Shown here piece by piece: positions 13,566 to 35,918 of a stretch of DNA of 64,000 bases. The DNA comes from Abditibacterium sp. (GTDB lineage Bacteria; Armatimonadota; Abditibacteriia; Abditibacteriales; Abditibacteriaceae). Below the pieces are notes generated by a model that ran no database searches, was not told the origin of the DNA, and worked only from the letters and a program-made list of their open reading frames with translations. Position numbers and translations under genes: made by a program. Location: positions 3,808,001-3,872,000 of the forward strand of contig CBDASK010000003.1 of the NCBI GenBank assembly GCA_965199495.1, written 5' to 3'. Position 1 is the stretch's first letter, and each line of letters opens with the position of its first letter.

Positions 13566-13669
13566 GAAATTTCGGTAGTCGCGAATGTCGGGCCAAAAGT
13601 GATAAAATAAATTGTAGTTATCGCCGGTGTCGAATCGGCAAGTTGAAGAATAAATCCATTCAAAACATC

Positions 13670-14983
13670 ATGAAAATCTTCGTTGCTGGCGCGCTTTTGT
13701 GCGCTTTATCCGCGCCGGTCTGGGCGCAAGAGATGCCTCCGGCGGCCAAACCCGATGCGAACACGCCCGAAACGGTTGAACCTCAGGCGGGCGCTCCGAT
13801 GACAGCCACGCCGCAGGCCAACAAAAAAGCGGCGCCGACGATTGGCGCGGGCGAACTGCGCTTGGACGGCAAAATCAAGGCGATGCTCAATCCGGGCGAA
13901 TGGCAGATGGAAGCGATTTCGTGGACTTCGCCGCGCGAGGTGATGACGGAGTTTTCCGATCCGAAATCGAAGACGATTAAAATCGGCGCCGACGCCTACA
14001 TTCATCCGGTCGGCGAAACCGATAAGGTCGCGATCAGAGACGTGAAGTTGGGCACGCGCATCGCGGTCATCGGCAAAAACGCCGCCGATGGTTCATTGAG
14101 CGCGCGCGAAATCATTTTGCTCGAAGGCTACGGTTCGCGCAAAACCGTCGGCACGCTTTCGAGCAATCCGTTCACATCGGCCTTGGTGCGCCAGAGCCGC
14201 AAGGCGCGCGAAGACGGCAACTTGCCCCAGGCGTTGAAGCTGATCGAAAGCGCGGTCACCGCCGCGCAGGGCATCAACGATTTAAGCGGCGAAGGCTTGG
14301 CAACGCAGGACAAAACTCTGCTGCTGATGGATTTGGGCGAAGTCGAGGCGGCGGGCAAAAGCGCCGAGCGCGTCGAGGCGATTGGCCGCAGCCTGAGCAA
14401 CTCGCTTTTGATCGCGATGGGCATGAACACGCGCGGGCGCGTATTGGCCGAGACCGGCGAACTCGATAAAGCGATTCAAGTTTTTGAAGCCGCCGATCCG
14501 ATCAGCGCGAGCAGCGAACCGGAAATTCAACTTTCGACGCTCAGTGGTTTGGCGCAGGTTTACGGACAGGCCGAGCGCACCCCGGATTTGGTGGCGACGC
14601 TGCAACGCATTTTTCCGCTCGAAGAATCGCTGCGCCAACCCGACGATGCGACCGGCACCTTGCTTTCGCTGGCGCGCACGCTGGCGCCGACCGACGCGAC
14701 CAAAGCGAAAGAATACTTGACGCAAGCCACGCCGCGCATTGATGACGCGAAAGACGAAAAGAAGCGCGCCGCCCTACGCAGTTCGTCGGCGCGGGCCAAA
14801 TATGCGCTGGGTGACAAAGACGGCGCCAAAGCCGATTTTGAAACGTCGGCCACGCTTTATGATGGCGTGGGCGATACCAAAAGCGCCGCCACCGCGCGCG
14901 CCGCCTTCGCGAAAATGGAGGCCAAAGGTGCGGCCAAACCCGGTGCGCCTGCGGCTCCCGTTGCGGACGAAACCGGTGAGTAA
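13670..14983 (+). CDS. Secreted TPR-like helical-repeat protein with N-terminal beta domain
   Basis: Signal peptide; DVKLGTRIAVIG..DGSLSAREI (DUF5666-like pattern); C-terminal TPR-like repeats. Confidence 0.7.
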   Translation: MKIFVAGALLCALSAPVWAQEMPPAAKPDANTPETVEPQAGAPMTATPQANKKAAPTIGAGELRLDGKIKAMLNPGEWQMEAISWTSPREVMTEFSDPKSKTIKIGADAYIHPVGETDKVAIRDVKLGTRIAVIGKNAADGSLSAREIILLEGYGSRKTVGTLSSNPFTSALVRQSRKAREDGNLPQALKLIESAVTAAQGINDLSGEGLATQDKTLLLMDLGEVEAAGKSAERVEAIGRSLSNSLLIAMGMNTRGRVLAETGELDKAIQVFEAADPISASSEPEIQLSTLSGLAQVYGQAERTPDLVATLQRIFPLEESLRQPDDATGTLLSLARTLAPTDATKAKEYLTQATPRIDDAKDEKKRAALRSSSARAKYALGDKDGAKADFETSATLYDGVGDTKSAATARAAFAKMEAKGAAKPGAPAAPVADETGE

Positions 14984-15565: not shown

Positions 15566-16696
15566 TTAGCGAAACAGTTCGGGCGCGAGGGCGCGGTAGG
15601 CGTAATAGACCTTCCAGACGTAACGCTGTGTGGTGGCTTTGGGCACCTTCATGCCCGCGCGATTGACGGCGCCGACACCCGCGTGATAAGCAGCCACGGC
15701 GAGCAGAGTGCCGTCTTTTTGCTGCGAGTAAGTATTGAGATTCTGGCGCAAAAGTTTGGCCGAGCCGAGCAAATTATCGGTTGGATCCCAAGCGTTTCGC
15801 ACGCCCAACGGTTTGAGATTAAACGGCATGAGTTGGCCCAAACCCATCGCGCCCGACGACGACAGGCACGACGGATCGAAATCGCTTTCGACTTGGACGA
15901 CGGCGCACAAAAAGCGCGGATCGAGATTATGCGTTCGCGCCGCGTTCAAAATCGCGCCCGCGATTTCATCGGCGCGCTCGTCGGATAATTTCGGATTATC
16001 GCGCCGAATGAACGTTTTATAATTGGCGCGATGTTGATCGGTAAACCCGAAATAAGGATTAGCCGTCGAAGGCGCCATCCTCGCCGTGGCTTGTATCTGA
16101 GGTGTGGGCAAAGCCTCGTCGGCGTTGTCCAGACCGGGCGCGAGCGGCAACTCCATTTCCTGCCCCAGCAAAATCGCGTCGGGCGCGGGCGCGCTCACCG
16201 AAGGCGGCGCGATGGCGATTCCATCGTCGTCCTCTTTTTTGAGCAAAGCCAACGGCTCGGCGCGGTCGGTGAGATTAGTCAACGACAAAGTCGGCTCGCC
16301 ATTGCTGATGCTTTCGACACGGCACAGCGCTCGCACAAAAGTCCCGCCTTTGAGGAGAGGATTGCCGCGCATTTCATCGGACGATTCGACGACTAATGTG
16401 CCGTCGGGTTGTTGCAACATCACCGAAAACCCACTTGCGCGCGAAAAAGTGCCCTTCACCACTCCGCGCAATTCGACGATGCGCCCGACATAGATTTTGC
16501 TCTGATCGCGCAGTTCGGCCTCGCTATCGAAGCGCGGCGCGCGCGCCTTAGCCTTTTGCAATTCGTAATCGTCGCCCGCCATCTGTGTCGCCGTGACGCG
16601 TTCGTTCATAGTGGGCGCCGATGCGCCTTGCGCGTAAACGGGCAAAGTCGAAGCGGGCAGGGCGCACAGCAGAGCGGCAAAAGCGATGTTTTTCAT
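15566..16696 (-). CDS. Lytic transglycosylase (SLT domain), secreted
   Basis: AVVQVESDF, SSSGAMGLGQLMP, AAYHAG; signal peptide from the ATG at 16696. Confidence 0.9.
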   Translation of the reverse strand: MKNIAFAALLCALPASTLPVYAQGASAPTMNERVTATQMAGDDYELQKAKARAPRFDSEAELRDQSKIYVGRIVELRGVVKGTFSRASGFSVMLQQPDGTLVVESSDEMRGNPLLKGGTFVRALCRVESISNGEPTLSLTNLTDRAEPLALLKKEDDDGIAIAPPSVSAPAPDAILLGQEMELPLAPGLDNADEALPTPQIQATARMAPSTANPYFGFTDQHRANYKTFIRRDNPKLSDERADEIAGAILNAARTHNLDPRFLCAVVQVESDFDPSCLSSSGAMGLGQLMPFNLKPLGVRNAWDPTDNLLGSAKLLRQNLNTYSQQKDGTLLAVAAYHAGVGAVNRAGMKVPKATTQRYVWKVYYAYRALAPELFR

Positions 16697-17021
16697 AGGA
16701 GATTTGGCGAAGTTTAGCAATATCTGCGTGAAATCGCTGTTGCTGAAAAGAGTTGGAGCGCGAGTCGAACGCGTAAACCAACCATTATCATCCCAAAAAT
16801 TCGCTAATTTAACTTTCATCATCGCTTGAGGCAGGCGATGTGGCTACCTCACGGCGCGACTAAGAACGGAAAACCTAATGCGGTCATGCCATCCGATTTC
16901 AGAGCGAATCCGTCAAAGTATCCACAATCCCGATGGAGTGTGAAAATATGCCAACGCGCGGCGTGGAACAGCTATTTAGTGGAAGTTATAATTTTCGATG
17001 ACAATAATTTTCCCGATCATC

Positions 17022-17897
17022 ATGCCCCGTTCCTATTTACTGAGCTTACTGATGCTCTTCATTTGTGCGCCGCTTGCGCATGCGCAAGATGGACAAAGAA
17101 TCTCGGTTCCTGTTTTTGAATTTCCGGCGATGCAGGGCACATGGAACAAGCTGACCAACGCTGTTTCGAGCGGTCGCATTTACGATTTCGCGGTTTCTAT
17201 GGACGACCAAGACACGACTTATTTCGTCAAGGAAGCGCGCGTTGTCTTCACCAATCCGGGAGATTTCGATCTGTTCGAGTGTTGGGTCAGCCTTGCCCAG
17301 CGACCGCACGCTGGCCGCACCCGTTTTCTGATCGAGGGCGACGGAGTTTCGCTTTACCGTTCGCAGTGGATGACCTGGCGCGATAAAGCCAAAAAAGTTA
17401 GCGTTTCGGTTAAGGGTTACAAAGGAATCTCTCTGATCGTCGAAGGATATGAGATGAATCAGTATGACATGGCGATCTGGGGTGAGCCTGTTTTGGTGCA
17501 GACCAACCCGCCTAAATTGGTGGAGACGCCCCGTAGTTTTCCGACTTTGCTGACCGTCAAGCAGTCTGATAATGGAGCTATTGGGCTTTCGATTGATGGC
17601 GTGGATATCGCGTTTGGTAACGCCAGGGCCACCAACGAAAATGGTCATTTGCTGGTGCCGATGCGTTCAGTATTCGAGTCTCTGGGTGCCCGTCTGAGTT
17701 ACAATCCGCGTTCTCACCAGATCGTCGCCACGCGCGGCGACCAGATTATTTCGATGGCGGTGGGAACTCGAACCGCATTTATCAATGGTCGCAGAACAGA
17801 TTTAGATGTTGCTTCGCGCTTTGTGTCTGGCGAGACGATGGTTCCTTTACGTTTCGTCGCCGAAGCTTTGGGAGTAGCCGTCGAATACAAAAGGTAA
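17022..17897 (+). CDS. Secreted protein: NPCBM/NEW2-like domain plus copper-amine-oxidase N-terminal (stalk) domain
   Basis: FLIEGDGVSLYRS..VSVKG..ISLIV..AIWGEP; LLVPMRSVFESLGA, TMVPLRFVAEALG; atypical codon usage. Confidence 0.75.
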   Translation: MPRSYLLSLLMLFICAPLAHAQDGQRISVPVFEFPAMQGTWNKLTNAVSSGRIYDFAVSMDDQDTTYFVKEARVVFTNPGDFDLFECWVSLAQRPHAGRTRFLIEGDGVSLYRSQWMTWRDKAKKVSVSVKGYKGISLIVEGYEMNQYDMAIWGEPVLVQTNPPKLVETPRSFPTLLTVKQSDNGAIGLSIDGVDIAFGNARATNENGHLLVPMRSVFESLGARLSYNPRSHQIVATRGDQIISMAVGTRTAFINGRRTDLDVASRFVSGETMVPLRFVAEALGVAVEYKR

Positions 17898-18007: not shown

Positions 18008-18415
18008 ATGCGCGTTTTTCCTTTTATGGCAGTTTTGGGCAATCTTTTACGTTGGCGGCGCGGCGAATCTTTAGTTCTCGCCGCGCTTTTGCTCGCGTGC
18101 CTATTCATGCCCGCTGCCGCACAGGGCGCGGTTTTGCCGCCGCAACAGGCGCACGCGGTTTTGCTGTGGCTACAAGCCGAAATGACGCCCGCCAGTGCGC
18201 CGCGCGTCGAGCAAACCGGCGATTTTCGCGCGTTATCCAATCGCGATAACAGCCCGATTTATATTTGCACCGTGCCCGTGGCTATAGCTACGCCGCCCGT
18301 AGAGGCGCGTTTGGCGGCGTTGCAAATTGAAGCGCGTCCGGTTGCCATATTTACGCTCGAATCGCACGAAGCCGCGTTTTTGACGGGCGTGCGCAATAAT
18401 CGTCGGCGCAATTGA
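18008..18415 (+). CDS. Hypothetical exported protein upstream of secA (candidate leader/monitoring peptide)
   Basis: Basic plus hydrophobic N-terminus ending AAA-QG; 135 aa; same strand as secA. Confidence 0.6.
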   Translation: MRVFPFMAVLGNLLRWRRGESLVLAALLLACLFMPAAAQGAVLPPQQAHAVLLWLQAEMTPASAPRVEQTGDFRALSNRDNSPIYICTVPVAIATPPVEARLAALQIEARPVAIFTLESHEAAFLTGVRNNRRRN

Positions 18416-18551
18416 AAAGCCGCGAAGATGCTCCCACAGAAACACCGACTTGTCGTGTCTAAAAATGGTGGAATTGCTTCAAAACTGCGGCGATTCCACC
18501 GTTTTAGACGCGATGAATCGCCGTCTCTACGGGAGCATCTTCGCGGCTTTT
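18415..18551. repeat. Nested hairpin: terminator-like outer stem enclosing a GTAG-type REP doublet
   Basis: AAAAGCCGCGAAGATGCTCCC/GGGAGCATCTTCGCGGCTTTT outer arms; inner ACACCGACTTGTCGTGTCTAAAA..TTTTAGACGCGATGAATCGCCGTCTCTAC related to 35922-36017. Confidence 0.85.
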
Positions 18552-18598
18552 TTGTTCCTTCACGACCCCCAACTCAATATCTCAAAGATAGATAAATC

Positions 18599-21500
18599 AT
18601 GTCACTGTTAAAAAAAATTTTCGGCTCGTCTGCCGACATCTCCAGCTCCGATACCAAAGGCCAGGGAGTTTTGGGCGCCGTGTCGCGCCTGTTCGATAAA
18701 AACGAAAAAGAGATCGCCCGACTGCGACCGACGGTCGAGAAAATCGGCCAAATTGGAACCGAACTCAAAGGTCTCTCCGACGACGAAATCAAAGCCCGCT
18801 CGCTCAAACTCAAGGCGACTTTTCAGGAAAAAGTCACGCAGCGTTTGAAGGCGCAGGGACTGGAATGGCAGGATTTGTCCGCCCAGAAAGATTGGGACGA
18901 CGCTTATAATAAAGCGCGTCTGGACGCCGAAAAAGCGACATTGGGCGAACTTTTGCCCGAAGCATTCGCCCTCGTGCGCGAAGCGGGCGACCGCACCATT
19001 GGGTTGCGACATTTTGATGTGCAGATCATTGGCGGCGCGGCTTTGCACGAAGGCACCATCACCGAAATGCGGACGGGCGAAGGCAAAACATTGGCAGCCA
19101 CGGCGCCCGCTTATCTTAATGCGTTGACCGGGCGCGGCGTGCATTGTGTGACCGTCAACGATTATTTGGCCGAGCGCGATGCCAACTGGATGCGCCCGGT
19201 TTACGAATTTCTGGGACTTTCTGTCGCGTTTTTGCAAAACGACATGGAGCCAGCCGACCGGCGCGTGGCCTATGCCGCCGACCTTTTGTATGGCACTAAC
19301 TCGGAGTTTGGCTTCGATTATCTGCGCGACAACATGGCGCGCTCGCCCGAAGATATGGTGCAGCGCCCGCTCAATTTCGCCATCATTGACGAGGTAGATA
19401 ACATCCTGATTGACGAGGCGCGCACGCCGCTAATCATCTCGGCCCAGGTCGCCAAAACCGACCGGGCACTGCGTCGCCAAGGCATGAGCAAAACCTGCGA
19501 CGGCGTCGCCAAACAATTGATGCCCGCCATCAATGACCAGGAAGTCGAAGCGTTTATTGACGAGTATTCGACCAAAGGCCGCATCGACATCGGCGGCCTG
19601 AGCGACGCGATTTTCAACGGCGGCGCCTTTCCCCACGCGATTGGTTATTTGATCGATTCGTATCTGGCCTCAGAAAAAACCGCGCGCACCGATAACGCCG
19701 CGCACTTGCTGGACGCCGCCGACGAACTGTTCGCCGATAAATTGATTAACCAAGTCGGCAAGGACGAACTGGAAAAAATGGCCCTAACCGCCACTCGTCC
19801 GCAGTTGTTGAATGAAGCGTGGCGCGGCGAAGTCGAGCATATTCTGGAACCGTTCGAGATGGCGTGGCTCAACGCGCGCGACGGCGAGTGGAACGCGCAA
19901 CTGCTCGCGCACGATTTGACTTTGCCTGAAGACGCGGCGTTCGATTTGGAAGAACATATTTCGCAAAGCGAAGATAAAGCCGAAGCGACTTCGCTACTGA
20001 TTGCCGACGAAATGGCACGCCGTGGCTACATCGAGCAGGACGGCGTTGACGCGATTGCGGGCGCGCTGCAAAACGGGCGCGATGCGTTGCGATTGGCGGT
20101 TTTGGAACAGCCGGGCAGCTTGTCGGACGCCGACAAGGTTTTGAGCGAACACGTTCCGGCGGGCGAAATCAGTTCGACCGAAGATGTGCGCCGCATCGTG
20201 AGCGCGCTCGAAGCGATTACGGCGACCGGGCTGGTGCCGTTCGCCACGACCGAGAAATTGTGGAACACGGTCGAACTTTCGGCTGACCGCGACGCTCTGC
20301 GCGCGCAGTTGACGAGCGTGATCGAGAAGCAGTCGGGCGACGTGGCTACACAAATCGTCGGCTTAGTCGAAGAGTATTCCAAGTCGCGCGAGGCGTTTTT
20401 AACTTCGCAAGCCGCCACATTGCGCGACGCGTTGGGCGGACATGAAGCCGTCGTGAAGTTGGCGCAATCGGGCGCCGGAGCCGACGCGTTGAGCGCGGCT
20501 TTGCAACGCGAACTCGCCAAATCCGGCCCGTTCGCCCAGGCGACGAAAGCGTCGGCACAGTTCGTCAAAGAACAAAACGCGGCTTATGGCGCTGTCGCCG
20601 ACCATTTGATCGAGGAAATGTCGCAGTGGGTCGAGATTCCTCAGGGCGCCAAGAAAACCATCGTTTCGATTTTGGGCGAAGGCGGGCGCGCGCCCGAAGT
20701 CGCCGAACGTTTGCTGCTGGCCGTGCGCGATTTGCCGGGCGATTCGTCCGAACTGGCGGCGATTGCTCAGGATGGCGCGAACCAGTTGCAGGGGTGGCGT
20801 CACGAACAGGCGATTTCGTTCGTCGAGAAAATCGGCGGATTAGTGCCGTTGCCCGATGCAGCCACGTCCGCGATTCAAACCGCCATCGAAGACGGCGACT
20901 TTGGCACCAACGGCTTTGAAGAGTTTGTCGGCGCGCAGTTGCTTTCTTCGGAAACTATCGCGCCTTTGGCGAGTGCCATCGAAAGTTATGGCGAGGCGTG
21001 GGACGCGTTTAAAGCCAAATCAAATCAGAGTTTGATTGACAACCTCGGCGGGCGTTTGGAGATGTCGCCGGACGCGAAAATCAATCTGGGCGAACTGCTC
21101 GCCCATCCTTATAAGGGCGCGCTGATTTCGCAGATTTTCGGCACGCTCGCCGCCGACGTTGTGGCGCGCCATTTGGAGCCGCTTTTGACCGAAGAGAACG
21201 CCGGAGCGTTCACCGAAGAGATCAAGCGCCGCGTCTCGATTGTGGACTCGATTGCCAAAAAGTTGAATCCCGCCGAGTTCACCGGAAAATCCGCCGAACA
21301 GTTGATGCGCGCGGTTCAGCGTTTGGTGGTGCGCTCGCTCGAAGTTTTGGAGTTCGACAAGTACAAGCGCGTTATCAAGAACTTGGGTTGGCTAACCGAA
21401 AAAGACGAGAAGCGGCGCACCGCCGCCGTTTCGGACATGGGCGCTTTGGTCGCCGAGCGCGAAGCGGCGCGGCCCATCTTTACCGATCCCGACGGCTTTT

Positions 21501-24500
21501 TGGACACGCTATTGGCCGCCGAAATCCTGACCGAAGGCGAGGCCGTCACCATCGCGCGCGCGCAAATGGAAGCGCCCGAACTGGGCATTTCGCAGATTAT
21601 TGATACGCAATTGCGCTTGCCCGCCGAGCGTCGTCGGCGTTTGGCCGAGGCGAAGTTGCAGGAAGTTCAGTCGGTTTTGGATCAGGGAATTAAGGCGCAC
21701 GCGTTGTTTGAATACAACGTGAATTACGTGATCGGCGGCGGCAAAGAGATCGTCATCGTGGACGAATTTACCGGGCGCACCATGCCGGGCCGCCGCTTTT
21801 CCGAAGGCTTGCATGAAGCTTTGGAAGCCAAGCACGGTCTGGAAGTGCAGATCGAATCGCAGACGGTGGCGACGATCACGATTCAGAATTATTTCCGGCT
21901 TTATAACAAAATTTCGGGCCTGACCGGAACCGCGAAAACCGAGGAAGCCGAGTTTGCCAAAACTTACGGCATCGAAGTCTTAACCGTGCCGACGAATAAA
22001 CCGGTGCGCCGCGTCGATCAGCCCGACGTGGTTTATAAAACCGCCGAGGCCAAACTGCGCTTCATCACGTTTGATATTCTGGAGCATCACTGCGTCGGCC
22101 AGCCGGTTCTGGTCGGCACGCGGTCAGTCGAAATGTCCGAGCGCATGGCGCAGCGATTGTCCGCTCCAGCGCTGCAAACTTTGGTTTTGACGCATTTAAT
22201 TAAGGAACATTTGCGCGCCGACAAATCGCCCGAAGCCGACAAAGCGCCACTGTGGGAGTTCGCGCGCGCGCCGATTACCAACATTAATCCGGTGCAGGCG
22301 AAGAATTTGGCCAAGCAGATGGGCATCAATCCCGACGCGGCCAGCGACGAAAATGTGAGCGCAATTCTAAGTCAGTTCACCGTGCCCAACGCCAGCCGCG
22401 AGCGTTTGGTGGCGGCTTTGAAACAGGGTTTGCCGCACAACGTTTTGAACGCCAAAAACCATCGCAACGAAGCGCGCATCATCGCCGAGGCCGCGCGGCC
22501 CGGCGCCGTCACCATCGCCACCAACATGGCGGGACGCGGTGTTGACATCATTCTGGGCGGCAGTCTGGACGGCGAAAGCCGTTGGCGCGTTTTGACCGAA
22601 CAATTGTTGGCGCGCCAGTTGGAAGGCAAAGGCGTTCATGTCCGTTCGGTCAACGCCGAGGCGACGCAGAAGATGGCGCAGCGATTGACGCCGGATAATT
22701 TGCAAACTCTGGCTTGGGCCGTCGCGATTTCGCGCCGTGTCGAGGAAATGGAGCGCGCGGGCACCCTCGAAGGTCAGGCGGCCAAAGAGATTAAAGATGC
22801 TTTGGGCAGCGACTTGACTTCGCCCGATTATGCCAACCGCGTAAGGTCGCGCGCGCGTCGCAATAATTTGTTGGACAAATTGCCGGTCGATTTAGAGCCG
22901 CTCAATCCGCAGATTGTTGGCGAGTTGGCGCTCGAATTGGGACGGATTATGAATCACCAATACGACGCCGAATCGTTGAACTTGATGCTGCAACACGGCG
23001 TTCCGGCGCAGGAACATCAATCGCAGGACGCGCAGTTGGGCCGCGATCCGGGCGAGTTGGCGTTGCTCTACACCTTAGCCACGCCGATGTCGTTCTCGCA
23101 AAATGCCAGCGAACGCTTGCTCGAAATCTTGGCCGAAGCGCCCGATTTGGATCGGCAATTGTTGGAACTCGTGGCGACCGGACAGATGCTCAAACCCGAA
23201 GCTCTGGCCGCGAACTTGGGCGTGGTCACGCCCGATTGGGTGCAGACGCGACTGGGCGAATTGGGCGTGCCCAACGCCGACGCGGCGGCGGATCGCTTAG
23301 GCGATTTGCCGCGCGACGAAGCCGAAATTACCGAATTTCAACTGGCGCAACAAATGGGCGAAGCGTTCATGGGGACGCCGTGGCTGCGTCAGCGACTGAG
23401 CGAATGGCAATTGGTTGAGGGCGCGCGCGCGTTTGAAGGAACGGAAGAAATGCAGAACGCGCTGCAAGATCAGGCGAACGTGCATTTGCGATTGAACCGC
23501 AAAGCGGCGTTGGCCAAGCGCGAGGAATGGAACTCGCCGCAAAGCCGCCGCGAGTTGGTGGCAGTCGAGGCGCCCAATTTGGTGTTGCTGCAAGAGTTGG
23601 CCGGAGTCGTCGGGCCGGAAGCGCCGATTTTGAATCCCGAATGGCTGCACCATACGTTGAGCGGCATGAACCTCATCACCGACGAAGACGTGATGCAGGC
23701 GCAGATGCAAGCGCAAGTGCAGGATGAAGAAGGCAACCAGAGCATCCAGCCGATTGACGTTTTGGTCTACCGTTTGAAGTTGAGCGGAATGCTCGAAGCG
23801 ATCAAACCGGTTGTGCGCGAGGCGGCGAAACAGGCCGATTCGCACGATCCAACGACGGTCTTTGGCGCGTTGCAGAATGTCGCGCCGTGGTTGCCGACGT
23901 TCGTGGACGACGAATGGTTGGCGCAGACTTTGGCCGAAACGCCGGAACTGGCGTTGCCGGAAGCGACAACGGAAGAGTTGGCGGTCGCCGGGGATTCGGG
24001 CATCGTGCAGATCGAGACCGGCGTGGCTGGTCAGAGCACCGACATCGTTTTGGAAAGCGAGGCGCGGCCCGAAGACATCGCGCACACCAGCGACCGCGAC
24101 ATTATCACCGATTTGGGCGGCTTGCACATCATCGGGTCGGAGCGTCACGAGAGCCGCCGCATTGACAACCAGTTGCGCGGGCGCGCCGGTCGCCAGGGCG
24201 ATCCGGGTTCGAGCCGCTTCTACATCTCATTGGATGACGAGCTGTGGCGTCTGTTCGGCACGCGCGGCCAATTCTTGTTGAAGAGTTGGGACGAGGACGA
24301 GCCAGTCGAGGCGGGCATCATTTCCAAGCAGATCGAGCGCGCGCAGAAGAAGGTCGAGCTGAACCACTTCGAGGGCCGCAAACACGTCTTGCAATACGAC
24401 GACGTGATGAACGTGCAACGCGAAGTCATCTACCGCGAACGCCGCCGCGCCTTGCAGGGCGCTGATATCCGCGACACGGTCGTTGATATGGCGCAAAAAG

Positions 24501-25243
24501 CGGCGATAACTCAGGCCGACGCGCACGCGCCGCGCGCCGTGCGGCCCGAAGAATGGGACACGCGCAAGCTCTACTTGGGGCTGGGCAAACTGTTCGGACT
24601 GAGCGCGCTCAAAGCGCAAATTTCCGATGATGAACAGTTGGAAGAAGCGAGTTGGCAGGAGTTGCCCGACAACGCGTTGGGCAATCCCAGCTTCGACTTC
24701 ATCCTGCGCGATGGACGCGGTTTGAACGAAATCGTCGAGAAATTGTATCAAGACCGCGAACACGCGTTGGGCACCGACCAAACGCGCGGGCTGGAACGTT
24801 GGCAGGTCATGCGTTCGATTGACGAGCATTGGATGGAGCATCTGGCCGAAATGGACTATTTGCGCGATGCGATCTGGCAGCAAGGCTACGCGCAGCGCGA
24901 GCCGATTGGCGTTTATCGTCAGGAAGGTTTCGAGCTGTTCCAGAAGATGCTGGGCGAAATCCGGCGCGAAGTGACGCAGGCGATCTTCGACTATGACGTG
25001 CCCGATTTCGAGCATGAAGACGCCTCGCCCGAACTGGGCGAGATGATCGAAGCCCGATTAGTGGATGCGTTCGCTGGTGGCGACGATGGTCTGGACGACG
25101 GAACATTGTTGGCCAAAGACGCCGACGGCGTTGACAATGACTTGGTGATGACCACGCAAAACACGCGCGAGGGCGCGCCGGGCGAAGGCAATCCCGATTC
25201 GGCCAGCAACCGCGCGGCGCGGCGGGCGAAGCGGCGCGAGTAA
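18599..25243 (+). CDS. secA: Preprotein translocase ATPase SecA, 2214 aa with large insertions
   Basis: [91 protein letters not shown] all present in order. Confidence 0.97.
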
Positions 25244-32114: not shown

Positions 32115-35100
32115 ATGCACTTATCCAAACTTCAACTTCACGGATTTAAATCGTTCGCCGACGACACTACGCTCGAATTTGGCGCGGGCATCACCGCCGT
32201 CGTCGGGCCGAATGGGTCAGGCAAATCGAATATCGTGGACGGCATTTTGTGGGCGCTGGGCGAACGTTCGCACAAAGCCCTGCGCGGCCACGCCGCCACC
32301 GATGTAATTTTTAATGGCGCCGCCTCGCGTAAACCGACCGGTTTGGCCGAAGTTTCGTTGTTCTTCGATAACGCGGATGGCGTTTTGTCGATTGGTTTGA
32401 AGGAAGTTCAAGTCACTCGGCGCATTTTCCGCGATGGCGATAACGAATATCGGCTGGGCGGCTCGAAGTGCCGGTTGCGCGATGTAACCGATTTATTTCT
32501 CGATACCGGCGTTGGGCCGGACGCCGGTTGCATTATCTCGCAGGGCGAAATCGACGCGATTTTAAGCGCCCGCGCCGAAGATCGGCGCGGTTTAATCGAA
32601 GGCGCGGCGGGCATCCAGAAATATCATTCGCGCCGCACGGAAACGCGGCGGCGATTAGACAAAGTTTCCATAGATTTGACGCGCATCGGCGATATTACGT
32701 CCGAATTGGAAAAGCAGGTCGGGCCATTGGCGCAGCAAGCCGAAATCGCGCGCGAATACGATCATTTGGTCGCGCGTTTGAAATCGTTGCAACTCGGCGT
32801 TTTGGGCCGCGATTATGGTGCGCGCAAAGCGAAATTGGATGCCAGTAAATCGGCGCACACCGAAACCATCGTATTGGTGGACGAAGCGCGTTTGGAAATC
32901 GAAAATTTTGAGCGCTTGGAAACTTTGACTTCGCGGCGATTACGCGAATTGGAAGCGCAAGTCGAAACGTTGTCGGGGCAATTAACAGAAAGCGTTTCGC
33001 AATTGAAATCGACCGAAGGCCAAATCGCCGTCGCGCGCGAGCGCCGGCGCGCATTGAGCGAGCAGGGCGAATATCAGGCGCGCGAAATCGGGCATTTGCG
33101 CGCGCGCGTGACGGCGACGCGCGAACAGATTACCACGACGCAAACCGCGATTAAAAACGCGGGCCAAGAGAACTCCGGCCTCAACGTGGCTGCTGCTCAG
33201 GCCGAAAGCAAATTGGGCGAAGCCAACGCGCGTTTATCGGAAGCCGCACGCGAATTGCAAATCGTGCAAAACGGCGTAATCGAAACGCTGCGCGCCGGAC
33301 AGAAACGCCGCGAAGCGATTGCGACCGCGCGCGCCGAAGCTACAGGTTTGGAAAACCGTCTGCGCGAATTGGAACAATTGGGCAAAGGCGGCGGCGAAGA
33401 GATCGAATCTTTGCGCGAAACTCACAATGTCGCGGCGAAAACTTTGGGCGAGCTGCGCGCCCAAATCGCCGACGAAAGCGCGCAAACGGCGGCGCGCGAG
33501 GCGTTGAACGCGGCGCGTGCGGCGGCGAAAAACGCCGCCGAAACTCTGCGCGATGCGCGCGAAAGTCGCGCGAAAATGGCGTCGCGCGCGGCGGCGTTGC
33601 GCGAGTTGGAAGAAAACCTGGAAGGTTTCGCCGGAGGCACGCGCGCGGTTTTAGCCGCCGTCCAAAAAGGCGTTTTGCCCGACGAATATACGCCGGTTGC
33701 CGACGCGATTCGGGCGCCGCAAGAGTTGGAACTCGCCATCGAAATCGCGCTGGGCGCAGGCGTGAATAACTTGATTTGCCCCGACAACGGCGCCGCCAAA
33801 ACCGCGATTGAATTTCTCAAACGCCGCAGCGCCGGACGCGCGACTTTTCTGCCGCTCGATTCATTGCGCAATTCCGGTTTGGGCAACCGCACGCTCGATG
33901 TTTTGAACGACAACGCGGTGCGCGGTTTGGCGTCGGAATTGGTCGAATGCGACGATTATTTTGGCAAAGCGGTGGATTATTTGTTGGGCCGTATTGTCAT
34001 CGTCGAAACGCTGGAAGACGCCACGCGATTGGCGCGGCGCTGCGACAACGGCGCGCGTTTGGTGACTTTGGAAGGCGAACTGGTTTTGGCGGGTGGCGCG
34101 ATAACCGGCGGCGCGGGCAAAGGGCGTGGAAGCGGATTATTGAAGCGCAAACGCGAATTGGACGAATTTGAGGCGCAACTGGCCGATTTGCAGTCGCGCA
34201 TTGATACAGCCACGTCCGACGTGGCTGCATCGAACGAAGCGATTGCCGCGCGCGAAAACGAGTTGCGAATCGCGGGCGAAAATCACAACGAATTGCGGCG
34301 TCAGGGCGCGCGCCAAGAACGCGAAGTCGAAGGTTTGGAGCGCGAAATTCGCAAAATGGGCGGGCAACGCGAAGCCATCGAAAGCCAGATGCGCGCGGCG
34401 CGCGCGCAACTCGAAACCAAATTGGCGGCGCGCGACGTTGAAATCGGCGAGGCGGATTTGGATGACGCGAAATCGAAAGAACTCGAAAGTGCCGTCGAAG
34501 GCGCGCGCGCGGTTGTCGGCACGCGGCAATCCGAAAAAGACGCCATTGCTGCCGAAGTTTCGGATGTGCGCGCGCAGTTTGGTGCGGCGCAGGAACGTTT
34601 GAACGCGATGCGGCGCGAAGTTGGCGAACTCGAACGCGGAATCAAAGAAGCCGAATCGCAAATCAAAGCGAAACAGAGCCAGTTCGACCGCGCCGAAATC
34701 GAAGACGCCGAAATCGTGCGCGCCGAAATCGAAATGGTGGCGAAATTGGAAGAATTGACGCAACGCCGCGCCGATTTGGAATTCGCCACGCGCAAAGCGC
34801 GCGAAGAGCGCGGCGCGGCATTGGAAAAGTTGGAAGAAGTCGGCGCCGGACTAAAATTAGCGCGCCAAAAATTGCACGGCGCCGAAGACGAACTACACAA
34901 AATCGAAGTGCGCATCGCCTCGACAGAAGCCGAAATCGCCGACATGGAACGCCGCTTTCGCGATGAATTTACGCTCGTTCCGGCGTCGGTCGTCGAATGT
35001 CTGGAACACGGCGCGCCCCTTCGCGCGTTCGTGCCGGTTGTTGAGGAAATTGAAGTCGAAGAACACGAATCTGACGGAGAAGAAATCGTCGAAGTTGTAA

Positions 35101-35918
35101 AACCCGAAGATCCAAAAGCGTTGCGAACTCCCGAAGAAGAGTTGGAAATGTTGTTGGCTGAACCCGAAATCGATGCGCCAAAAGCGCCCGCGTTTCCTCT
35201 CGATTTTTTCTTGCGCGACGAGAACTTCGACCGGCGCGGCGCGGGACGCGAAATCGAAGAATTGACGCGCAAAGTGAGCGGACTGGGCCGCGTGAATACC
35301 GGCGCCATTGCGCAATACGAAGCGGTCAAAGAGCGGCTCGATTTTCTGCTTGAACAGCGCGCCGATTTGGAAACCGCGCGCGACGAACTCCATGCGATTA
35401 TGACCGAAATTGATGGGCGCATGAAATCGCAGTTTTTGGAAACTTTTACCGCGATTCGCGAGGCTTTTGCTGAGACTTTTTCGCGCGTTTTCGGCGGTGG
35501 CAAAACGCATCTGTCGCTGACCGATCCGGAAAATTTGCTCGAAACTGGCATCGAACTGCGCGTGCAAATGCCCGGCAAAGCGGCGCAAGATATTTCGCTC
35601 CTTTCGGGTGGCGAACGGGCCTTGACGGCGCTTTCATTCATGATGGCGATTCTGCGCGTGCGCCCGGCGCCGTTCGTGATTTTGGACGAAGTGGACGCGC
35701 CTCTGGATCAATCGAACGTCGGGCGCTTCACCGATTTGCTGCGCGAATTCACCGATACGACGCAGTTCATCGTGATTACGCACAACAACGGCACAATGCA
35801 AGCCGCCGACGTTTTGTATGGCGTCACGCAACAAGAGCAGGGCGTCTCGACGTTGATGAGCGTGCGATTGGCCGAAGAATCCGAAATGCAACGCGAGAAC
35901 GTTTTGGCAGTGGCGTAA
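32115..35918 (+). CDS. smc: Chromosome segregation protein SMC
   Basis: GFKSFA, GPNGSGKSN, hinge GRATFLPL, LGRVN, LSGGE, LDEVDAPLD, QFIVITH. Confidence 0.97.
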   Translation: MHLSKLQLHGFKSFADDTTLEFGAGITAVVGPNGSGKSNIVDGILWALGERSHKALRGHAATDVIFNGAASRKPTGLAEVSLFFDNADGVLSIGLKEVQVTRRIFRDGDNEYRLGGSKCRLRDVTDLFLDTGVGPDAGCIISQGEIDAILSARAEDRRGLIEGAAGIQKYHSRRTETRRRLDKVSIDLTRIGDITSELEKQVGPLAQQAEIAREYDHLVARLKSLQLGVLGRDYGARKAKLDASKSAHTETIVLVDEARLEIENFERLETLTSRRLRELEAQVETLSGQLTESVSQLKSTEGQIAVARERRRALSEQGEYQAREIGHLRARVTATREQITTTQTAIKNAGQENSGLNVAAAQAESKLGEANARLSEAARELQIVQNGVIETLRAGQKRREAIATARAEATGLENRLRELEQLGKGGGEEIESLRETHNVAAKTLGELRAQIADESAQTAAREALNAARAAAKNAAETLRDARESRAKMASRAAALRELEENLEGFAGGTRAVLAAVQKGVLPDEYTPVADAIRAPQELELAIEIALGAGVNNLICPDNGAAKTAIEFLKRRSAGRATFLPLDSLRNSGLGNRTLDVLNDNAVRGLASELVECDDYFGKAVDYLLGRIVIVETLEDATRLARRCDNGARLVTLEGELVLAGGAITGGAGKGRGSGLLKRKRELDEFEAQLADLQSRIDTATSDVAASNEAIAARENELRIAGENHNELRRQGARQEREVEGLEREIRKMGGQREAIESQMRAARAQLETKLAARDVEIGEADLDDAKSKELESAVEGARAVVGTRQSEKDAIAAEVSDVRAQFGAAQERLNAMRREVGELERGIKEAESQIKAKQSQFDRAEIEDAEIVRAEIEMVAKLEELTQRRADLEFATRKAREERGAALEKLEEVGAGLKLARQKLHGAEDELHKIEVRIASTEAEIADMERRFRDEFTLVPASVVECLEHGAPLRAFVPVVEEIEVEEHESDGEEIVEVVKPEDPKALRTPEEELEMLLAEPEIDAPKAPAFPLDFFLRDENFDRRGAGREIEELTRKVSGLGRVNTGAIAQYEAVKERLDFLLEQRADLETARDELHAIMTEIDGRMKSQFLETFTAIREAFAETFSRVFGGGKTHLSLTDPENLLETGIELRVQMPGKAAQDISLLSGGERALTALSFMMAILRVRPAPFVILDEVDAPLDQSNVGRFTDLLREFTDTTQFIVITHNNGTMQAADVLYGVTQQEQGVSTLMSVRLAEESEMQRENVLAVA

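Follow-up and report, generated by a model that had tools for sequence, protein, structure and literature searches.

A 2214-residue SecA with an intact motor, a predicted helical PPXD arm and a degenerate partial NBD2 copy in the Abditibacteria

The window considered here (the whole stretch of DNA analysed, 64,000 nucleotides from Abditibacterium sp.) contains a secA gene (18599..25243, + strand) with an open reading frame of 2214 aa, as an earlier note on this sequence had reported. At ~2.4 times the usual SecA size (canonical SecA comprises ~840-900 aa), the protein owes its length to a 620-residue arm, predicted to be helical, and to a degenerate partial copy of an ATPase domain that holds four repeats. 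The gene is shown below to be present in a single copy and to encode invariant catalytic motifs, an internal duplication and repeats, all retained across the class under purifying selection. As to what the additions do, the chances appear about even that the arm and the repeat-bearing NBD2 copy work as non-catalytic docking surfaces.

When the protein was compared with family models, scores above the cut-offs were obtained with NCBIfam PRK12904 (906.6 bits; cut-off 814) and TIGR00963 (853.7; cut-off 800), and all four SecA2 models scored under their cut-offs. A second secA of normal size, for which the earlier note had advised looking, was not found in the genome (95% complete), where SecA is encoded at one locus and SecY is present. 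Assignment as an accessory SecA2 was accordingly rejected, given the missed SecA2 cut-offs and no coexisting SecA1. It is nearly certain that the gene encodes the housekeeping SecA of the cell.

SF2 motifs I, II, IV, V and VI were all found, intact and in the expected order, as had been claimed. NBD1 (18689..19453, + strand; aa ~31-285; Pfam SecA_DEAD) carries Walker A GEGKT (160) and DEVD (264), both invariant in a 63-row alignment of giant SecAs, which includes near-duplicates and a few truncated ends. In the same alignment, motifs I, II, V and VI and the PPXD loop are essentially invariant, with the intact motif V (TNMAGRG; 22520..22540, + strand; aa 1308-1314) being 100% conserved. The intact motif VI (11 residues; 24170..24202, + strand; aa 1858-1868) occurs once in the protein. 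The sequences that served as landmarks in the earlier note were located at the positions it gave, namely, TPLIIS at aa 276-281, IKAHALF at 1031 (nt 21689), GQPVLVG at 1167, a 10-residue motif at 1277, DIILGG at 1316-1321 and GGLHIIG at 1840 (nt 24116). Beyond motif VI, the helical scaffold, wing domain and two-helix finger (24302..24991, + strand; aa 1902-2131; Pfam SecA_SW) are of near-normal size and are followed by an acidic C-terminal tail (24992..25243, + strand) that has a basic helix at its end. This tail holds an 11-residue sequence and no zinc-binding motif, such that the absence of CPCGSG described previously is borne out; CPCGSG is present in 21 of the 63 aligned giant SecAs, and its loss is ordinary.

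A structural model of aa 1105-1930 could be superimposed on solved SecA NBD2 with Z 15-18 and rmsd 2.4-2.9 Å over ~160-180 residues in the best rows. The model thus predicts that the first NBD2 copy and the part after insert 3 fold together as a normal NBD2, and that the inserts fold as separate appendages, the placement of which is uncertain given a pTM of 0.50. As in canonical SecA (E. coli 2fsf, B. subtilis 1m6n/1tf2 and T. maritima 3jux), the domain order, motor motifs, PPXD loop, two-helix finger and NBD2 fold are all present, in a single-copy protein accompanied by ordinary SecY and SecDF. The giant SecA differs from the canonical protein in its 620-aa PPXD arm, in the catalytically dead partial NBD2 duplicate and four repeats at the VAR site, which in E. 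coli comprises ~30 residues (aa ~519-547; PMC6620043), and in having no zinc motif.

The earlier note had placed ~750 aa between TPLIIS and IKAHALF. A large PPXD insertion does lie there; however, with the PPXD hairpin (DEK..xxT.xG) picking up again at aa 935, it is split into insert 1 (19526..21388, + strand; aa ~310-930), of ~620 aa, and ~55 extra residues at ~965-1020. With its borders set by profile alignment to small SecAs, insert 1 falls between the first helix and the beta-hairpin of the PPXD. The resumed PPXD core (21401..21898, + strand; aa 935-1100), with a conserved 15-residue loop, was aligned to the PPXD of small SecAs (hhalign P=99.9), matched Pfam SecA_PP_bind at aa 1007-1076 and was structurally similar to the SecA PPXD 5k94 (Z 7.0, rmsd 4.3 Å, 129 residues). 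In an AlphaFold2 model (pLDDT 82, pTM 0.68), insert 1 is predicted to be an all-helical arm. It contains four helical units of ~70 aa (20330..21178, + strand), R1 (aa 578-640), R2 (642-712), R3 (718-784) and R4 (787-860), each laid out as a long helix, a short helix, a Gly and a helix. Profile comparisons yielded E=3e-6 for R3/R4, 4e-5 for R2/R4, 4e-4 for R1/R4, 1e-3 for R2/R3, 0.013 for R1/R3 and 0.3 for R1/R2, where reversed controls gave E values of at least 0.15. That insert 1 starts with a PPXD copy was considered and rejected, since the P=63 obtained came from a shared PLIIS start and an alternative alignment gave E=0.07. Searches with the model revealed no Foldseek match at E<=0.001 and generic helical bundles only (best Z 8.4), while a homologue search returned 51 proteins of 1217-3875 aa, every one a SecA, and a profile search among proteins of 342-1196 aa added three close fragments.

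Insert 2 (22160..22420, + strand), with four helices predicted by the model, lies within NBD2. An insertion between GQPVLVG and the 10-residue motif had been noted earlier, at ~110 aa; the insertion stands, although it measures ~88 aa and is also found in the small SecAs of the phylum. Of the 24 small Armatimonadota SecAs in which the distance from motif IV to LNAK could be measured, 20 have 112-128 aa there; judged by sequence, insert 2 is thus phylum-wide and not particular to the giant form. The helical insert of Thermus thermophilus SecA (2ipc) occupies the same NBD2 site, and a phmmer alignment to 2ipc runs through insert 2 in one stretch, as is true of no other SecA in the PDB. In PMC7023208, the conserved Thermus insert is 76 aa long and SecA inserts of 50 and 76 aa are described; inserts 1 and 3 of the giant SecA are 7-12 times longer than these and lie at other sites. 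Unlike in the Thermus protein, insert 2 occurs twice here.

The second occurrence is found in insert 3, i.e., the ~520-aa gap in the variable region, both border motifs of which, DIILGG and GGLHIIG, were found as described. What had been read as an addition is for the most part NBD2 sequence duplicated within the protein, which the first reading overlooked. The degenerate copy (22571..23011, + strand; aa 1325-1471) duplicates aa 1149-1281, insert 2 included, as reflected in BLASTP (E=3e-6), in hhalign (P=97, E~3e-11) and in a score of 71, against a shuffled-column maximum of 24. A separate profile, built from 29 SecAs without the duplication, recovered it as well (P=97.2, E=2.9e-11). Since the 11 sampled copies constitute one side of a 100/99 branch, a single duplication before the class split fits the data. 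Further downstream, a 17-residue stretch (24005..24055, + strand; aa 1803-1819) is a degenerate copy of the motif V strand (hhalign E=1e-5; score 24, shuffled maximum 13). Here, Gln1812 occupies the place of Arg1313 in 100% of rows, and E1806, G1808, V1809, G1811, Q1812 and D1815 are invariant. In the NBD2 copy, R1349 and R1351, together with R1418, R1420 and R1421 in the 1418-1421 stretch, are conserved at 90-98%. The six invariant positions and the conserved arginines suggest that the copy has acquired a new, selected role. That it forms a second active RecA-like motor domain was rejected, as the motif V arginine is missing and motif VI is single. Both ends of insert 3 derive from SecA itself, and on that basis the insert is not foreign.

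Between these two copied segments lies an acidic block of four repeats (23111..23968, + strand; aa ~1505-1790), with a W-x-x-x-x-L helix. All six profile pairs gave E<1e-3 (reversed controls, E of at least 0.007), while single-sequence self-BLAST missed every internal repeat in the protein. Repeats 2 and 3 show a predicted winged-helix element order, and repeats 1 and 4 are predicted three-helix units. The description of the inserts as helical-looking therefore holds for insert 1, predicted to be all-helical, and only in part for insert 3, predicted to be alpha/beta. Fold searches with the NBD2 model, insert 3 included, returned mostly SecA and SF2 helicases, and a viral structure library offered nothing significant. 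Derivation of the repeats from the wing domain (HWD) was rejected, as merged repeat profiles gave values similar to those of reversed controls (E=0.14 and 0.26); one weak HWD window match was seen at aa 823-915 (E=8e-4, with controls down to 0.004). A HMMER search with the repeat block over 1.84 billion representatives returned seven matches: two giant SecAs in full length and five shorter proteins, two of which were inspected and proved to be SecA fragments. Two SecA fragments were likewise obtained among proteins of 168-585 aa. A complex prediction for insert 3 (aa 1322-1828) and part of insert 1 (aa 401-860) scored 0.00, which is uninformative either way.

Beyond the clade of giant SecAs, sequence searches detected no relative of insert 1 or of the insert 3 repeats. 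The ESM Atlas provided no usable match for insert 1 or the repeat block, and PDB sequence searches with the inserts returned nothing meaningful, designed helical repeat proteins being the best matches; such blank searches show neither an absence of homologues nor a new fold. No publication on the giant SecA of the Abditibacteria was found in a search of the literature outside subscription journals and bioRxiv supplements, and the first 300,000 characters of PMC7203096, the one paper listed for both Abditibacterium and SecA, do not contain 'SecA'.

That inteins, introns or misassembly explain the inserts is extremely improbable. The few observations in this direction come from the 826-residue model, for which Foldseek listed weak matches to endonucleases of LAGLIDADG or homing type (E 0.14-0.36). 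Against these, neither the whole protein nor 26+26 insert sequences matched a HINT or LAGLIDADG family of Pfam, and no Cys/Ser...His-Asn splice ends were seen at the insert borders inspected, in agreement with the earlier note. The codon usage of the inserts is that of the host, as had been stated (GC3 0.67-0.73 in inserts and core alike), SecA's own sequence bounds insert 3 on both sides, and the open frame and inserts are the same throughout the Abditibacteria. Contigs from four sequencing runs cover all 30 bins, the best of these runs possibly being the source sample; no RNA run was listed with the sequence. Some metagenome contig joints pass from motif V to motif VI with ~1600 nt left out; their sides measure 20-45 nt, and they most likely represent ordinary secA genes of other organisms.

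As to orthologue lengths, both large inserts are present in 31/31 Abditibacteria genomes, as is the repeat block, and small SecAs dominate the other classes. Of 126 SecA frames from other Armatimonadota classes, 121 are at most 1300 aa, with a median open frame of 1047 aa. These small SecAs share insert 2 and the overall core with the giant form, lack insert 1 (PPXD spacing, 73-75 aa) and have a VAR region of 43-152 aa in the seven measured. Insert lengths vary narrowly across the class (618-680, 142-153 and 277-317 aa). Relative to two close relatives, insert 1 shows, e.g., 151 synonymous versus 56 amino-acid-changing codons, and the repeat block 63 versus 16. The view of a lineage-specific SecA with built-in extra domains thus survives as regards lineage specificity, conservation and non-intein nature, and fails for the phylum-wide insert 2. 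Elsewhere in the phylum, an independent SecA of 2500 aa was found in four genomes of family f18. It, too, is a housekeeping SecA, enlarged two- to three-fold and partly by copying its own modules; it carries ~1450 aa of wing-domain copies, whereas the Abditibacteria protein copies an ATPase-domain piece and has insert repeats unlike the wing domain. With a second independent giant in the phylum, a much larger cytoplasmic surface seems to have been selected for, or tolerated, more than once. A 1580-aa frame in one further genome proved to be an ordinary SecA whose frame is extended upstream by a stretch without stop codons.

The main rival to docking surfaces is that the class ancestor accreted a duplication and repeats in permissive surface loops, kept solely because folding requires them, a reading that seems rather unlikely. 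Columns conserved at >=90% make up 10-20% of the inserts, 16% of the wing domain and 62% of NBD1; insert conservation is hence not above that of the wing domain, a level that a structural role fits as well. The growth of SecA at a different site in family f18 and the unremarkable remainder of the Sec machine point the same way. Accretion is harder to reconcile with ~1200 extra residues held at near-constant length over four families whose orthologues are ~41-46% identical, with the partial repeat loss in one genome being the only shortening among 31, and with the invariant positions and arginine patch of a dead copy.

Binding of RNA or DNA by the winged-helix-like block and arginine patch, for ribosome docking or autoregulation, is improbable. 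It would accord with the predicted element order of repeats 2 and 3, with scattered weak HTH/wHTH Pfam matches (E 0.008-0.2, each in 1-3 of 61 segments) and with a weak Foldseek match to chain O of RNA polymerase III (E=0.097), a subunit with tandem winged helices. None of these matches is significant, the putative recognition helices are not basic, and the block exceeds the SecA core in acidity (median charge -8.4 versus -5.9 per 100 aa). The nucleic-acid-binding role that the earlier note had entertained is therefore disfavoured for the block, while the NBD2 copy retains its conserved arginines; SecA does bind ribosomes, and basic tails may do so too, according to PMC6620043. Very improbable is a role of the NBD2 copy in gating the ATPase, whether as an allosteric decoy or as an alternate partner, by strand exchange with the true NBD2 or by taking its place. 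The copy does retain the same predicted elements in the same order, its motif V strand holds invariant residues and its last strand comes immediately before the GGLHIIG strand, a place that ordinary SecA gives to the true motif V strand. Yet the true NBD2 stretch is far more conserved and aligns to small SecAs at P=100, and the model rebuilds a normal NBD2.

The intact motor would drive ATP-dependent translocation through a normal SecYEG, as in other SecAs, and the NBD2 copy would form no second active site because it is without the motif V arginine and motif VI. In PMC5963308, preprotein binds between the NBDs and the PPXD, which rotates towards NBD2. The PPXD and NBD2 are the two jaws of this substrate clamp and both carry inserts, which would therefore give preprotein or partners a larger cytoplasmic surface to be held on and would affect clamp movement; the arginine patch would bind a polyanion, e.g., rRNA or anionic lipid. 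Replacement of SecB, SecDF or trigger factor by the inserts was rejected. SecY, SecDF and trigger factor are present and of ordinary size, Ffh and FtsY are present, and SecB was detected in 1/31 genomes, including 0/8 with a small SecA, such that no component lost only in the Abditibacteria is being substituted. A fuller proposal, at present doubtful, is a three-lobed SecA in which the dead NBD2-half copy is a platform for tandem winged-helix modules and, with the 620-residue clamp arm, forms a built-in apparatus that serves for holding and docking (of ribosome, membrane or preprotein) and alters how substrates reach SecYEG, with the output tuned by an undescribed class of secretion-monitor arrest peptide.

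SecA is among the most conserved of bacterial machines, and the published inserts found add 50-76 aa, as compared to ~1200 residues here. A class-wide giant form reveals which motor surfaces are free during SecYEG docking and clamp closure, thereby constraining models of translocation, and provides a natural test of regulation by the VAR site and PPXD loop. The inserts also offer a diagnostic marker of the class.

Upstream of secA and on the same strand lies an ORF of 135 aa (18008..18415, + strand) with a signal-like hydrophobic segment (hydropathy peak 2.5 at aa 21-35) and, at a fixed distance from the stop, a conserved C-terminal motif, L-x-x-H-E-A-A-x-L-S-G-x-R-T-N-R-R-x-(N/E)-stop, present in 20/21 family loci. 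The product matched no Pfam or NCBIfam model. SecM and other Sec-monitoring arrest peptides (PMC10987492) share with this product a small ORF directly 5' of secA, a conserved C-terminal motif and an N-terminus that resembles a signal; unlike these, the C-termini considered here are without a RAPP/RAGP-like arrest motif. The string 'abditibacter' has 0 occurrences in the candidate table (file 9) of the same source. From its position, N-terminal export signal (by hydropathy and sequence) and conserved C-terminus, the ORF is a candidate SecM-like secretion monitor and may found a new arrest-peptide family. At its stop codon begins a long hairpin (18414..18553, + strand; -97.6 kcal/mol, z=-13) that ends ~45 nt 5' of the secA ATG. 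Such hairpins vary among relatives, and a dedicated secA element was rejected, the core being a palindromic repeat dispersed across the genome (228 blastn matches).

The secA ORF (18599-25243, + strand) codes for a protein of 2214 aa. A motif check on its translation confirmed the motif positions given in the earlier note, which had described a giant SecA with intact motor motifs and three large non-intein inserts. Pfam assigned SecA_DEAD to aa 31-291, the second half only of SecA_PP_bind to aa 1007-1076, P-loop_SecA to aa 1135-1355 and SecA_SW to aa 1902-2131. The protein scored above the curated cut-off of each of two SecA equivalog models and reached that of no SecA2 model. GC3 was 0.67-0.73 for the SecA core and the inserts alike. 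When a second secA was sought, as that note had proposed, the giant protein proved to be the sole SecA found in the genome (4.8 Mb, 95% complete).

Insert 1 was present in 31 of 31 genomes (the source genome counted), from four families of Abditibacteria, a class within Armatimonadota according to GTDB, as given in supplement rows of PMC10987492. The repeat block of insert 3 was likewise present in all 31, in shortened form in genome G019. Where the whole gene lay on a single contig, orthologue open frames measured 2143-2356 aa; secA is spread over contigs in G001, G005 and G033 and falls into several frames in G038. The broken frames in G038 (locus L072, G038:C12:517500-526000; genome 79% complete) are probably sequencing errors, and a second repeat-block copy in G034 (G034:C549:293-1216, - strand; short contig, 671-aa frame) possibly reflects a second strain in the bin. 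Database searches with insert 1 matched 51 proteins, all SecA, of 1887-2350 aa, with the source label Abditibacteriota or Abditibacteriaceae on three.

Among 127 genomes sampled from other classes of the phylum, SecA_SW was matched in 126. Of these SecA frames, 121 were at most 1300 aa long (five of them truncated), the median being 1047 aa; one of 1580 aa was an artefact of a stop-free run upstream. Four frames of 2494-2608 aa, from another family, show a different expansion (L142:1157-8980(-), L143:1505-9088(+), L144:1628-9109(-) and L145:1822-9477(-), in G044, G057, G069 and G081), each with a wing domain enlarged by ~1450 residues and 11-15 matches to the wing profile. This is a second giant SecA in the phylum, of independent origin. 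The wing region is expanded to a lesser extent in a 1294-aa SecA of G091 (L147:87-3968(+)).

Insert 3 is a duplication of a stretch of SecA's own NBD2, enclosing a repeat block. BLASTP matched aa 1325-1372 to aa 1149-1195 of the same protein (36%, E=3e-6), and profile alignment gave a longer match (1149-1281 versus 1325-1471; P=97, E~3e-11), which was also recovered with a profile built from 29 SecAs that lack the duplication (P=97.2). As controls, reversed columns yielded E=0.26 and the best of 30 shuffles scored 24 versus 71. At the far end of the insert, aa 1790-1822 aligned with motif V and the strand of that motif (1291-1322) at E=1e-5, scoring 24 where no shuffle exceeded 13. An AlphaFold2 model of aa 1105-1930, based on 63 aligned giant SecAs (pLDDT 83, pTM 0.50), superposed on solved SecA NBD2 with Z 15-18; in it both copies run through helix, strand, helix, four helices and a strand and then, beyond the insertion, another helix followed by the motif V strand. 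In the copied motif V, TNMAGRG reads ETGVAGQS, with Gln at the Arg position in every row, and motif VI is single, with no duplicate in the copy; since both hold, a second active site would be excluded. The dead motif nonetheless keeps six invariant positions, and conservation across the 63 rows, near-duplicates included, is 90-98% for five arginines. A tree of 48 segments, rooted only at the midpoint, sets the 11 copies apart by a branch with 100/99 support and groups the 11 true NBD2 copies weakly (41/44), a topology consistent with a single duplication preceding the class radiation. Such partial duplication of an ATPase domain with nested repeats, fixed class-wide, appears to be unique; no description of a giant Abditibacteria SecA was found in the openly accessible literature searched.

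The repeat block comprises four units (aa ~1505-1790), each with a W-x-x-x-x-L helix. All six profile pairs gave E<1e-3, as against E>=0.007 for reversed controls. For units 2 and 3 the element order predicted is that of a winged helix, and units 1 and 4 are three-helix; HTH or wHTH Pfam matches were weak and scattered (1-3 of 61 segments), and a Foldseek row was weak (E=0.097). In G019 (locus L070), insert 3 is 402 aa long and most of repeats 1-2 is missing, indicating that the block is modular.

Because the PPXD hairpin resumes at aa 935 in alignment with small SecAs, those of ordinary size (P=99.9), insert 1 spans ~310-930; a further ~55 extra PPXD residues lie at ~965-1020. The 867-aa model of this region (pLDDT 82, pTM 0.68) is nearly all helix, and its PPXD core retains a match to solved SecA PPXD (Z 7.0). 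Four related units of ~70 aa occupy aa 578-860 (four of six pairs at E<=1.3e-3; R1/R3 0.013, R1/R2 0.3). The idea that these were wing-domain copies was rejected, the wing domain being unmatched. Model helices 328-359 pair with 535-569 in structural alignments, which suggests a nested out-and-back arm.

Insert 2 (~88 aa in NBD2) is phylum-wide, motif IV and LNAK being 112-128 aa apart in 20 of 24 measurable small SecAs; two exceptions measure 53 aa and two are longer. Thermus SecA bears its own insert at the same place, which PMC7023208 describes as a signature of 76 aa on the periphery of NBD2. At the C-terminus, 21 of 63 giant SecAs carry the zinc motif and most others a basic helix in its stead; PMC6620043 reports the motif in 117 of 156 surveyed SecAs and basic tails as an alternative to it.

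Motor action would most likely be as for other SecAs. According to PMC5963308, the substrate site lies between the NBDs and the PPXD, which rotates towards NBD2; the two large inserts sit on both jaws (PPXD and NBD2) of this clamp. The reading we favour, with about even confidence, is that they are selected, non-catalytic surfaces on which preprotein, ribosome, membrane or some partner would dock; it draws on the steady length of the inserts, on purifying selection and on residues that have become conserved anew in the dead copy. Their conservation is, however, no better than that of the wing domain and SecA has been enlarged independently in other lineages, such that tolerated accretion is a viable if rather unlikely alternative to docking.

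Nucleic-acid binding by insert 3 is improbable: the repeat block, for all its predicted winged-helix order, is acidic (median -8.4 versus -5.9 per 100 aa for the SecA core), which speaks against DNA binding. That the NBD2 copy acts as an allosteric decoy seems very unlikely, and an intein or misassembly has a negligible probability. Misassembly, which the earlier note had named as grounds for refutation, is excluded by the recurrence of the open frame with its inserts across the class.

As to partners, all 31 relatives have an ordinary-sized SecY and a SecDF, and 28 of them trigger factor; Ffh and FtsY were found in the Abditibacterium genome itself. SecB was found in one of the 31 (G003:C2:35426-35710(-), the sole SecB-family match) and in none of the eight with a small SecA. 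Among the neighbours of secA are genes for a lytic transglycosylase, lactate dehydrogenase and SMC, and the set gives no hint of a cassette dedicated to export. When seven were sought at the relatives' loci, where flanks are short, only the ORF upstream of secA was matched. The SMC gene (32115-35918, +) encodes 1267 aa, scoring above the bacterial SMC cut-off of a slightly shorter model (1181 positions). Likely exported, and also encoded near secA, are an SLT lytic transglycosylase whose N-terminal part is long (15566-16822, -), an NPCBM and copper-amine-oxidase-N protein (16998-17897, +) and a TPR protein (13643-14983, +).

The upstream ORF (135 aa; 18008-18415, +) ends 183 nt before secA and contains a hydrophobic, signal-like segment. 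In 20 of 21 family loci, always upstream of secA (the window, L002-L011, L016, L061-L066, L068 and L069), it carries a C-terminal motif, L-x-x-H-E-A-A-x-L-S-G-x-R-T-N-R-R-x-(N/E)-stop, with constant spacing to the stop. Nineteen were detected by pattern and L007 by reading the sequence; L012 has diverged, and pattern matches in L020 and, initially, L007 were left out as wrong frames. The ORF was not found in the four loci from the other three families. It fits the search used for SecM-like monitors in PMC10987492, whose candidate table, as available, lacks 'abditibacter'; it has no RAPP-like motif. From its sequence, it is a candidate for a new SecM-like arrest peptide. Directly past its stop lies a near-perfect hairpin of 140 nt (18414-18553; z=-13), the core of which is a dispersed palindromic repeat with 228 blastn matches in the genome, which we take to be REP-like. 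Close relatives carry other hairpins at the same place, with similar outer arms.
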